Shown here piece after piece: positions 1 to 1,829 of a stretch of DNA of 8,349 nt (position 1 is its first letter; every line of letters begins with the position of its first letter). The position numbers and the translations under genes were made by a program. The notes under the pieces are model-generated. The model saw nothing but the letters and a program-made list of their open reading frames with translations. It searched no databases and was not told the origin of the DNA. The stretch comes from a virus: positions 3,846 through 12,194 of the IMG/VR virus record IMGVR_UViG_3300013947_000211. One strand, 5' to 3'.

Positions 1-26
1 TGTATTATAACTTCTACTTCTACCAT
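1..26 (-). CDS. 5' end of an unidentified gene running off the left edge (MVEVEVII...)
   Basis: ATG at 26..24 is preceded by GAAAGGAGG (40..32) with a 5-nt spacer. Only 8 codons are visible, so the product is unknown. By position, downstream of the late-activator-like gene, it could be the first late or packaging gene (inference). Confidence 0.45.
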
Positions 27-46
27 ATTATCCTCCTTTCGTAAAA

Positions 47-121
47 TGGTTGCGGGTAATGGAATTGAACCATTATTCTTTAGCCTCTGAAACTAATATG
101 TTACCGTTACACCATCCCGCT
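47..121 (-). tRNA. Phage-encoded tRNA, anticodon CAG (nominally Leu), atypical class-I shape
   Basis: The reverse complement folds as a cloverleaf. The acceptor core is GCGGG/CCCGC. U8, A14, the GG of the D-loop and A21 are present. D-stem is GTGT/ACAT. Anticodon stem is TTAGT/GCTAA with loop TT-CAG-AG. The variable loop is 5 nt (AGAAT). T-arm is AATGG-TTCAATT-CCATT. Discriminator is A and CCA is encoded (49..47). Oddities are A.A at both 1:72 and 7:66, and no long variable arm. Confidence 0.7.
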
Positions 122-201
122 TATTTATAATCATTTAGAATATTAAGTACAATTGCTATACTTGCTATTGTTATTAATAATACTAAACCAATTATGATCA
201 T
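121..201 (-). CDS. 26-aa hydrophobic mini-ORF (MIIIGLVLLITIASIAIVLNILNDYK), candidate single-pass membrane peptide
   Basis: Hand translation gives ATG at 201..199 and TAA at 123..121. AAAGGA lies 7 nt upstream of the ATG. The peptide is one uninterrupted hydrophobic helix with a polar C-terminal NDYK. The stop codon abuts the first tRNA nucleotide. It is below the size cutoff of the ORF track and could be fortuitous. Confidence 0.3.
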   Translation of the reverse strand: MIIIGLVLLITIASIAIVLNILNDYK

Positions 202-228
202 TTATTTTTCCTTTCTTTTTTTAATAAA

Positions 229-400
229 CACTGTACTAATATTTATTTATATGGCCTCCTAGATAGTTGTTAGCTAGGTTCTATCTCTAATTTGGGTTAA
301 TTCTTCTTACCGCGTAAGAGTGACACGATAACTAAATACCCTTGTATATTTTCCCTTTTCGAGTAATACAACTATAACCTCAATAAATATCAGTACAGTG
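229..400. repeat. 19-nt inverted repeat arms (229..247 and 382..400) enclosing 134 nt
   Basis: cactgtactaatatttatt compared with the reverse complement of aataaatatcagtacagtg gives 18/19 complementary positions. The single mismatch is 238:391. Confidence 0.9.
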
Positions 401-404
401 CACA

Positions 405-429
405 TAAAAAAACAACCATTAAGGTTGTT
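405..429 (-). terminator. Terminator-like hairpin plus U-tract on the minus strand (may instead be an internal helix of the ncRNA)
   Basis: The minus strand reads AACAACC-TTAAT-GGTTGTT followed by TTTTT-A-TGTG. The stem is only 7 bp and of moderate strength. It sits between the two structured halves of the non-coding region. Confidence 0.3.
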
Positions 430-535
430 GGGACCGCAACGGGTCAATGTTAGTACATTATTAGTACCGTATTAAGTAAATCAGACGCATAAGGGTTCAA
501 ACCTTATTTATTAAATGCTCATATAATCAGCGCCC

Positions 536-656
536 GATTTACTCAATACGCTACCAGTAAGGTAGCAGTACATATTTACTAGCACCATAGAGTAAATAGT
601 CAACTCGAGTTCTTATAATCTATAAACTATCTACTCTATGCTACTAATAAAGTAGC
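536..656. repeat. Two copies of a ~30-nt unit (536..566 and 626..656) ending in hairpin gctacY-aRtaa-RGtagc
   Basis: tactcaatacGCTACCagtaaGGTAGCa compared with tactc-tatGCTACTaataaAGTAGCa. The C:G closing pair of copy 1 is replaced by T:A in copy 2, a compensatory double change. Confidence 0.8.
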
Positions 657-775
657 ACGGTGATTTTATTGTCTTATTTATAGACAATGTGCAAGATAAT
701 ACAATTTGAAAGGAGGTATAAAAAAGAACATTTTTTAAACCTGGTTATCTGTTATCGGCTTCTATTTTTCTGAAT

Positions 776-982
776 TTAATACTTTATAGATGACATAGAA
801 CATAATAAAATATTAAATCCCCCAAGAATAGTAACTTGCGTATTATCTTCCACATCGGCTATAAAGCCGACTGGGGTTTTTGAACCAAGTAAAGGTATGA
901 AAGACACTTTTTGTGTAATCTTCCACAATAACATTGTATACCAAATTAATAGGACATAGTAGGACATAATGTGACATTCCAT
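776..982 (-). CDS. Hypothetical small protein with two hydrophobic segments (possible membrane protein)
   Basis: 68-aa ORF in the track. Its ATG overlaps the upstream TAA as TAATG, which suggests translational coupling, and there is no own SD. Hydrophobic stretches are SYYVLLIWYTMLLW and VTILGGFNILLCSM. It has no recognisable family and could be spurious. Confidence 0.45.
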   Translation of the reverse strand: MECHIMSYYVLLIWYTMLLWKITQKVSFIPLLGSKTPVGFIADVEDNTQVTILGGFNILLCSMSSIKY

Positions 983-1389
983 TATTTTTTTGCGTTACTA
1001 TATAAACGGCAGCAATGTCTTGTTGAATAATTAAATGTTTTACTTATTTCTTCCCATTTCCATTTTAATGTATCTCTGAAGAAAACTATACATTCTTCTA
1101 TAGGTTTGGATCTTATCATTTCTCTTATTTCATTAATTGCTTGCTCTTTGTAGGAATCATATGAGGCTTTCACTATATCAAACTCACTTTCTAACTCTTC
1201 TCTTTTTACAAATTTATTTAACATTATATCTCCCTTTTTACCGCCCCCTACAACAATATCTTTCCAAGTAATAGCAGTAACTAAGCTCATTAATCTGTGT
1301 TCTTTTTCTGCTATCTTAATTAATCTGCATTTTAATACTTTCATTTCATCAAACAATTCTTTAATAGTTAATTTTTTCTCTAATATCAC
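982..1389 (-). CDS. Phage transcriptional regulator, sigma-70 region-4-type HTH (RinA/ArpU/DUF1492-class late-gene activator-like)
   Basis: GTG start 4 nt after GGAGG (1398..1394). The C-terminus IVFFRDTLKWKWEEISKTFNYSTRHCCRLYSNA fits the pattern seen in Firmicute phage late activators (hydrophobic-R-x-x-x-x-x-W-x-E-I-x-x-x-x-x-Y-S-x-R-H/x-x-x-R-x-x-x-x-A). The central LVTAITWKDIVVGGG..GD segment resembles the DUF1492 core. Its position just before the non-coding region and the next module agrees. The family call rests on motif memory only. Confidence 0.75.
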   Translation of the reverse strand: MILEKKLTIKELFDEMKVLKCRLIKIAEKEHRLMSLVTAITWKDIVVGGGKKGDIMLNKFVKREELESEFDIVKASYDSYKEQAINEIREMIRSKPIEECIVFFRDTLKWKWEEISKTFNYSTRHCCRLYSNAKK

Positions 1390-1397
1390 TTAACCTC

Positions 1398-1829
1398 CTA
1401 TTTTGTAAATTTCCAATTATTTATTTTTATATTATTCTTTTTTGCATATAGTAAAAATGCTTGCTTTTCTGCTTCATTTCTAAAACCTATCAAAATACTT
1501 GGTGGTGTAGGCAAATGTTCTTCGGTTGGTTTCCAGATATGTAAACAATGCTCGTGATTATTTACATAATCTTCTTTTCTAGGATGATACTCAACACAGC
1601 ACTCACTTTCGTTCCAGAATATATCCTTCATCATACACATTTGTTCCCAACTAGGTGTTTTACTTGGCATACTTACTGACAAGTGTTCCCATCCCATTTG
1701 GTAACTAAATATGAAGTTAAGTCTTTTATTATTAAATCTATCGTAATAATAACCACCTATTCCATCATTGTCAGTTTCTGCTCCAATAACTAAATTAGGT
1801 GTGTTTTTAATTTCTTCTAATGATTTCAA
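1398..1829 (-). CDS. Hypothetical protein with conserved GWEHLSVS ... HPRKEDYVNNHEHCLHIW motif (possible metal-binding)
   Basis: TTG start with GGAGG 7 nt upstream (1841..1837) and no nearby in-frame ATG. The stop TAG overlaps the next gene's SD. The motif block looks like a widespread phage domain of unknown function that I cannot name with certainty. Confidence 0.85.
   Translation of the reverse strand: MKSLEEIKNTPNLVIGAETDNDGIGGYYYDRFNNKRLNFIFSYQMGWEHLSVSMPSKTPSWEQMCMMKDIFWNESECCVEYHPRKEDYVNNHEHCLHIWKPTEEHLPTPPSILIGFRNEAEKQAFLLYAKKNNIKINNWKFTK

Follow-up and report, generated by a model that had tools for sequence, protein, structure and literature searches.

The window analysed here is a stretch of 8,349 nucleotides, corresponding to bases 3846-12194 of the 12.2-kb IMG/VR viral contig IMGVR_UViG_3300013947_000211, and all of its genes are carried on the minus strand. 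In the order of transcription, the early genes for SSB and a NinB-like protein are followed by about 25 small early ORFs, a 135-aa ORF and a 68-aa ORF; then come an ORF-free stretch of ~575 nt (775-202), a mini-ORF (201-121) and a tRNA with the anticodon CAG (121-47). Past the end of the window lie a 70-aa ORF, the gene of an HTH protein in the position of the small terminase subunit, and the genes of the large terminase and the portal. The host phage is best explained as a siphovirus-like phage of gut Bacilli/Erysipelotrichaceae, in which a tRNA/ncRNA island precedes the packaging genes. This island is anchored by the tRNA (47-121, minus strand; 47.9 bits with the Rfam tRNA model, also called by ARAGORN), which carries a Leu anticodon and occupies this place ahead of the terminase genes in ~25 related phages as well; being only 72-75 nt long, it does not have the long variable arm of bacterial tRNA-Leu. 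The hydrophobic mini-ORF of 26 codons (121-201, minus strand), as read from the sequence, has a Shine-Dalgarno-like AAAGGA, lies directly downstream of the RNA array described below and has its stop codon directly against the tRNA. The mini-ORF is kept in the relatives L003 and L005, and in another relative, L021, a different small hydrophobic ORF takes its position. Two genes upstream of the array, a 143-aa protein (1398-1829, minus strand) contains DUF7694 (E 1e-25); among 80 relatives, within the flank compared, this gene occurs only in L003. Pfam and PHROGs identified no RNA-binding or RNA-processing protein near the array, and in a tblastn search of the neighbouring window proteins against the 80 relatives no gene tracked the presence of the RNA elements beyond relatedness.

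The middle of the ORF-free stretch (468-656) had been presented in a preliminary description as an internally duplicated RNA domain, in which two tandem modules share one architecture, a long helix followed by a 6-bp hairpin. Every helix listed there is present in the sequence, and we refer to the two elements as cassettes M1 (573-662, minus strand; module 2 of that description) and M2 (447-572, minus strand; module 1). The tandem 6-bp hairpins (550-566 and 640-656) form a 21-nt direct repeat, 81% identical, at a spacing of 90 nt. On the plus strand, the helix 468-482/536-550 is paired at 14/15 positions, the exception A474.C544 being a G.U pair on the minus strand, and 586-600/626-640 is likewise paired at 14/15 positions, with an A595.C631 mismatch, previously overlooked, that also becomes G.U on the minus strand. 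The proposed correspondence of A474.C544 in one module to G590:C636 in the other holds in the model alignment, where it is the family stem column 32/179, a G.U pair in 15/17 seed sequences and G-C in M1. The helical arms are longer than first described, namely 454-488/530-564 and 575-600/626-651. M1 consists of a 5' hairpin termed hp1 (640-656), a basal stem (586-600/626-640), an outer extension of this stem (575-584/642-651) and an apical cargo of 25 nt (601-625); the basal stem has a pair probability of 0.998, the extension one of 0.98 and hp1 one of ~0. M2 consists of hp1 (550-566; pair probability 0.99), a 21-bp stem (468-488/530-550; 0.93-0.99), a cargo of about 41-42 nt (489-529) and a 3' hairpin (452-468).

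Minus-strand folding of 440-700, which the preliminary description had proposed as a check, gave -88.1 kcal/mol against -51.5 +/- 4.2 kcal/mol for shuffled sequences (z -8.6), compared with -64.3 kcal/mol (z -4.7) for the plus strand; the whole stretch 122-775 folds at z -12.2. The structure is of RNA type and strand-specific, as had been supposed, in that both the fold of the minus strand and its scores with the covariance model described below exceed those of the plus strand. A constrained fold of M2 with the outer extension enforced returned an energy below the MFE, which was an artefact of a forced non-canonical pair and was discarded. As a further observation on M1, its apical loop contains a perfect palindrome of 10 nt (602-611; AACUCGAGUU on the RNA) that is identical in the relatives L003 and L183. 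A kissing-loop role for this palindrome was considered and dropped: perfect palindromes of at least 8 nt occur in 12/51 cargos, compared with ~17 expected from shuffles.

The two cassettes are embedded in a larger array. The segment 628-780 (minus strand), with an A/U-rich hairpin at 714-742 and a second hairpin at 668-688, is 94-95% identical to L003, L005 and L183, and the cassettes that come after it are 76% identical or replaced in these relatives. This segment may serve the RNA array as its leader or promoter; a promoter scan gave no convincing sigma-70-like promoter upstream on the minus strand. On the other side of M2, a small hairpin (432-445) is followed by an intrinsic-terminator-like hairpin (411-429) with a U-tract, the whole spanning 404-445 on the minus strand. 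The terminator scan of the 1.1-kb region yielded two sites, compared with 0.3 expected, 411-429 being the one on the minus strand; the pair probability of this hairpin is 0.96, and in L003 and L005 its stem is kept and its loops vary. Beyond it lies a third cassette, M3 (217-412, minus strand), which has a stem of the type that we designate C/D and is recognised as an inverted repeat with 31-nt arms, 84% complementary, that forms in the MFE fold a long stem (382-412/217-247) around a 134-nt cargo. The U-tract of the terminator (404-412) can also pair with an A-run (211-217) just upstream of the ribosome-binding site of the mini-ORF. This pairing is the outermost part of the M3 stem, and it could couple termination, M3 folding and translation of the mini-ORF.

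Using the large terminase protein as query, we collected related loci, 80 in viral contigs and 26 in prophages, the latter from MAGs/isolates labelled mostly Erysipelotrichaceae or uncultured Bacilli and derived from rabbit, mouse, ruminant and human guts. In the ~25 viral contigs with tRNA(CAG) at the same place, the tRNA is preceded by ORF-free gaps of 200-1200 nt, and the gap of L016 holds five more tRNAs. Relatives with a 60-70% identical large terminase have no gap of at least 150 nt at this place. All-vs-all comparison of the gaps revealed short (25-40 nt), highly conserved segments common to many otherwise unrelated gaps, and these belong to a cassette design that, read on the gene strand, comprises a 6-bp 5' hairpin (hp1: GCUAYC, loop, GGUAGC), a basal stem, a cargo of 25-155 nt, the 3' strand of the stem and, often, a 3' hairpin. 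The 5' strand of the basal stem reads C-AUAUUGAGUAAAUA, with the variant C-AUAGAGUAGAUAUA, and its 3' strand reads UAUUUACUUGAUAU-G or UAUAUCUAUUCUAU-G, after which comes GUGCUUAUAAA, often closing the 3' hairpin. The sister type, C/D, has the outer parts of the family and a different inner stem (GUACUGAUGAUAU / AUAUCAUUAGUAC). In the MFE fold of most copies, the basal stem of ~15 bp is lengthened by 10 bp outward across a G.G mismatch, and this outer extension uses the loop and the 3' arm of hp1.

A covariance model, R1, was built from 17 cassettes, with M2 in the seed and M1 left out. M1 matched R1 on the minus strand with 46.5 bits (E 6e-9), compared with 17.2 bits for the plus-strand mirror, and M2, as a seed member, scored 88.5 bits, compared with 40.2 bits for its mirror, so that both window modules fall within the stem-clamped family. 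Across the 80 loci, oriented by their terminase genes, 29/29 primary R1 matches lie on the gene strand. They occupy two slots, the first preceding the terminase genes and the second lying 3-4 kb downstream of where the large terminase gene starts; this second slot contains tRNAs and skipping-rope RNA in relatives. As individual cases, a skipping-rope RNA (RF02924, 47.9 bits) lies in this second ncRNA slot, downstream of the portal region, at L022:8301-8385, and elsewhere the slot holds tRNA-Ser, tRNA-Pro or a cassette; in L004, an intrinsic terminator directly follows the cassette there. Exact-motif scans added 31 viral contigs and 55 metagenome contigs, mostly from gut, bringing the total to at least 102 distinct sense copies, which come from gut metagenomes and from related phages and prophages of gut Bacilli/Erysipelotrichaceae. 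In five host genomes, among the 150 candidates scored per genome, cassettes were found only inside prophage. At gathering thresholds and at E <= 10, Rfam returned for the region only tRNA and chance matches to microRNA precursors, of the generic long-hairpin kind, and blastn of 130-780 against 50,697 GenBank phage records gave no match. The cassettes have no match in Rfam 15; a catalogue of 10,006 candidate viral structured RNAs (PMC10690425) may include them. Judged by Rfam and the GenBank phage records, the stem-clamped RNA cassettes are apparently a phage RNA family that has not been described before.

The preliminary description treated the two modules as one internally duplicated domain and named the lack of one module in homologues as an observation that would speak against it. 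Such homologues were found. The closest relatives share the flanks (94-95% identity over 628-780 and 88% over 389-471) and are unlike one another between these flanks, with a single module in L005, two in the window and at least four in L003 and L183; in L141 the homologue of M2 has other neighbours. Because the number of modules varies in this way, from one to at least four, the pair M1 and M2 is not an obligate unit. The one module of L005 is a hybrid that has the 5' flank of M1 and the 3' flank of M2, and the series from L005 through the window to L003 and L183 indicates that modules are gained and lost by recombination between the conserved stems. Tandem runs of 1-3 copies were detected per locus, the count rising to at least four in L003 when motifs are counted, and the A/B and C/D types occur in either order among relatives. 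M1 and M2 are independent cassettes of a larger family, and as such paralogous copies of one architecture.

The claim that compensatory changes favour RNA structure was borne out, since differences between the copies as well as between homologues preserve pairing. Compared with its homologues in L003, L183 and L165, M1 shows seven differences in the stem, all of them pairing-preserving, of which one is a double change from G.U to U-A and the others place C/U opposite G or A/G opposite U. The homologue of M2 in L141 (1441-1568; 86.7 bits) has an identical cargo loop, and its stem differs by two double changes, A-U to G-C and U-A to C-G, and by one loss, G.U to G.A. Across the family, compensatory change keeps the stem among homologues. 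In the seed, 99.0% of the cells of the 25-bp clamp are paired and 6 pairs carry double changes, a result reached by 0/500 shuffles; in 64 distinct matches, 96.8% are paired and double changes occur in 19/25 pairs and 93 cells (0/500 shuffles), counts that come from alignments fitted to the model, which favours pairing, and that overstate the number of independent events, because many copies are closely related. Slid controls of the 64-sequence alignment were 28-51% paired. For the C/D stem, including M3, 96.3% of cells are paired and 17/23 pairs show double changes (0/500 shuffles), the latter count being inflated by one A/B-type row in the alignment. In 55 sense copies, 98.6% of the pairs are canonical, 14.5% of these being G.U; with a G.U share of ~14%, the opposite strand would be expected to pair less well, and only 84.6% of its pairs would be canonical. 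Stems that are 97-99% paired with many compensated changes point to continuing selection.

A switch had also been proposed for the window, in which 591-598 pairs with 573-580 instead of 628-635. The candidate partner (AGUAAAUA, 573-580, minus strand) is perfectly complementary over 8 bp; the probability of this pairing is ~0, enforcing it costs +15.5 kcal/mol, and the switch was abandoned on grounds of energy and conservation. The segment 573-580 lies outside the family consensus and probably remains from the 5' strand of another cassette that has been deleted; the segment's complementarity to the 3' strand of the stem would then arise because it is the start of that cassette's 5' strand, truncated in the window. 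In L003, the junction GGUGCU-AGUAAAUA opens a complete extra cassette. At the level of the family, a different alternation is supported, that between hp1 and the outer 10-bp extension of the stem. All six pairs of hp1 can form in 41/55 copies, compared with ~2.5 expected, and the competing outer extension is 99% paired. In addition, the last base of hp1 (C/U) covaries both with the first base of hp1 (G/A) and with its partner in the stem (G/A). The two window copies are predicted by folding to be in opposite states, M1 being extended (0.98) and M2 having hp1 formed (0.99).

The cassettes are closely associated with tRNAs. At loci with a tRNA, the nearest one called by ARAGORN is on the same strand for 54/54 modules, at a median distance of ~300 nt. 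Among the cargos, that of L051 reached 40.8 bits with the Rfam tRNA model, above threshold, and was the only such cargo at E <= 0.5; the cargo of L170 was called as a tRNA at the default settings of ARAGORN, and at a relaxed threshold ARAGORN made two dubious calls among 29 cargos. The call in L170 is a short-bodied tRNA-Ser(UGA) that lies inside the cassette. D-arm-like and T-arm-like parts are present in the cargos of L098 and L100, and T-loop hairpins occur at 0.85 per kb of cargo compared with 0.046 per kb of background, an enrichment of ~18-fold. The cargo of M2 has a T-arm-like hairpin (491-505, AAGG-UUUGAAC-CCUU) 2 nt before the 3' strand of the stem, a placement roughly like that of a T-arm preceding the 3' strand of the acceptor; the rest of this cargo is not tRNA-like, and ARAGORN reported M2 at the relaxed threshold only, as an undetermined tRNA-???. 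With RF00005 at 29 bits or more, neither M1 nor M2 was matched, and 50-121 was the sole tRNA match in the window. The cargo of M1, a 25-nt loop, has no tRNA-like feature, as is the case for ~15/20 cargo types including it. Since L051 alone was scored by Rfam and two of the ARAGORN calls were dubious, we describe only a minority of cargos as tRNA-like. The real tRNAs inspected in the islands have no enclosing clamp, and in L004, L095 and L097 the 5' hairpin of a cassette overlaps the 3' end of a real tRNA. One cargo type of 139 nt shows compensatory change in 17/63 pairs, and judging from such alignments cargos can be selected structures in their own right. This type, seen at L090:9804-10016, L107:1175-1388, L016:1807-2021 and other loci, is a multi-helix RNA with conserved internal loops; it had no Rfam match at gathering thresholds in the scanned loci and is a candidate new motif.

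Several known systems resemble the array in part. ROOL and GOLLD are non-coding, highly structured RNAs found beside the tRNA islands of phages and prophages (PMC5737381; bioRxiv 10.1101/2024.12.08.627333). Their genomic niche is that of the cassettes; however, each of them (ROOL, RF03087; GOLLD, RF01998) is one multi-junction RNA of ~580-800 nt with pseudoknots, whereas the cassettes are simple and modular, 90-215 nt long and variable in number. Neither ROOL (threshold 99.1 bits) nor GOLLD matched window positions 1-1100, even at E <= 10, and a full-length ROOL of 154.5 bits was detected, as a positive control, in the syntenic slot of L021 (2215-2801). The ROOL of L021 is preceded by a C/D-type cassette, whose cargo has two T-arm-like hairpins (GUUCGAUUC), and on its other side come a terminator, a small hydrophobic ORF and tRNA(CAG). 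In YrlA, a tRNA-like domain is reportedly carried on a long stem and bound by Ro/Rsr. The cassettes likewise have a long conserved stem formed by their two ends, 5' and 3', with a tRNA-like distal part in some members; they differ in that most cargos are not tRNA-like and that no Ro-binding helix sequence was recognised. Y RNA and YrlA models of Rfam did not match window positions 1-1100, and a TROVE (PF05731)/Rsr gene was absent from five host genomes, with control genomes positive. The nearest mechanistic analogies are with RNase III substrates. Between the early genes of T7, RNase III hairpins with a duplex of at least 20 bp and a small internal mismatch are repeated within one transcript, and in rRNA operons cleavage frees a functional RNA from the leader-trailer stalk around it. 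By its length and regularity, the cassette duplex would fit such hairpins and stalks; in contrast to them, the stem sequence is conserved far more than in usual RNase III substrates and the enclosed RNAs are small and heterogeneous. In the put element of HK022, finally, a phage transcript carries two stem-loops in tandem ahead of terminators. The array in the window is comparable in layout, with tandem stem-loops before a terminator; unlike put, the cassettes vary in unit number and in cargo, and copies also stand alone at a terminator of their own.

The segment 447-662 contains a conserved structured element twice, as independent copies; this element is strand-specific, restricted to phages and associated with their tRNAs. 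Judging from the sequence comparisons, the cassettes are very probably a real transcribed RNA family. On balance we lean towards reading M1 and M2 as adjacent, independently folding, phage-specific stem-clamped cassettes, with M3 as a third, in which the stem would serve as a handle for processing or stability. In such a mechanism, the cassettes would be transcribed together with the tRNA island; the conserved duplex of ~25 bp would be their common handle, as an RNase III-type site and/or an end-protecting clamp; through this handle each cargo would be set free, or kept stable, as a small RNA; and the effector role would fall to the cargos, some being mimics or relics of tRNAs. The handle role in itself is a tentative proposal by analogy, made because the length of the stem, its conservation and its position at tRNA islands resemble those of known systems.

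Other readings of the array have to be weighed against that of stem-clamped cassettes. The hairpins might be a cis-acting leader of the late (packaging) operon that acts on the polymerase or on the terminator 404-429, by put-like antitermination or as an attenuator, and so controls read-through into the mini-ORF, the tRNA and the terminase genes. The array does separate the last early genes from the small terminase gene, an intrinsic terminator comes after it, the segment upstream of it is the best conserved, two stem-loops before a terminator recall HK022 put, and the family has two alternative base pairings. We nevertheless consider a leader unlikely, given that the cassettes vary in number (one to at least four) and in the order of A/B and C/D types, that the copies in the second slot are intergenic and end at their own terminator, and that diverse, partly independently conserved cargos would be superfluous for a hairpin that purely modifies polymerase. 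Still less likely, in our assessment, is that the modules are domains of a single ornate RNA of ~450-500 nt like ROOL or GOLLD, placed in the slot that ROOL has in L021. The strong fold of 122-775 (z -12.2), the syntenic ROOL of L021 and the typical proximity of ROOL and GOLLD to phage tRNA islands (PMC5737381; bioRxiv 10.1101/2024.12.08.627333) would agree with it; however, neither model matched even at E <= 10, an internal terminator splits the region, the modules are shuffled, deleted and multiplied in relatives, unlike one fixed tertiary architecture, and in L021 a cassette stands beside ROOL and does not take its place.

An element acting as DNA, whether a terminase-binding or cos/pac site, a structure of ssDNA in replication or recombination, or linker sequences that promote exchange, would suit a region that by gene order is at the packaging-site/module-boundary position of many siphoviruses. 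Conserved flanks around many unrelated inserts and the hybrid module of L005 show recombination at the flanks, and ssDNA hairpins tolerate G.T pairs and would give the same strand asymmetry. Against this, the strand-specific wobble is on the coding strand in every copy of known orientation, cargos have RNA-type features (a tRNA score, T-loops, compensated helices), terminators come directly after cassettes, the second slot is far from the terminase genes, and the cassettes are missing in relatives with a 60-70% identical large terminase; we judge a DNA-level role to be improbable. The least probable of the readings is that of decaying phage tRNA genes with a paired leader and trailer, now functionless. 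Stems that are 97-99% paired with many compensated changes do not fit decay, nor do non-tRNA cargos that are kept by covariation, such as the 139-nt type, and the real island tRNAs inspected have no clamp, even though a tRNA score or a T-arm persists in some cargos and a cassette's 5' hairpin runs into the 3' end of a real tRNA in L004, L095 and L097.

Read as stem-clamped cassettes, the array would mean that phage tRNA islands hold, besides the enigmatic large RNAs ROOL and GOLLD, modular small structured RNAs with one clamp and differing cargo, and a shared clamp with differing cargo points to a common maturation or recognition step and an exchangeable RNA payload. A broader view, which we regard as rather doubtful, is that of a portable RNA expression cassette in phages of gut Bacilli, with a bistable 25-bp clamp as the universal signal and diverse RNAs swapped in. 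Were it true, the clamp would be a signal for processing, stability or recognition, and cargos, including tRNA mimics, T-loop RNAs and the 139-nt multi-helix RNA, would be exchanged by recombination at the clamp; such RNAs would be exchangeable phage effectors, for example decoys against host defences that target tRNAs. The family could also help to explain why phages retain non-canonical tRNA-like genes. For annotation, the cassettes explain an 'empty' region of 500 nt that precedes the terminase genes in many contigs of gut phages, and R1, together with at least 102 distinct copies, most of them from gut phage, prophage and gut-metagenome sequences, provides a defined, testable family model. 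A further observation in the related loci concerns tRNA-like RNAs with a long variable arm, at L051:2770-2860, L098:12882-13041 (minus strand) and L016:2078-2169. In the region of the anticodon loop, these RNAs carry a palindrome of 6-8 nt (GCGUACGC or GGGUACCC), and from copy to copy its changes are symmetrical.
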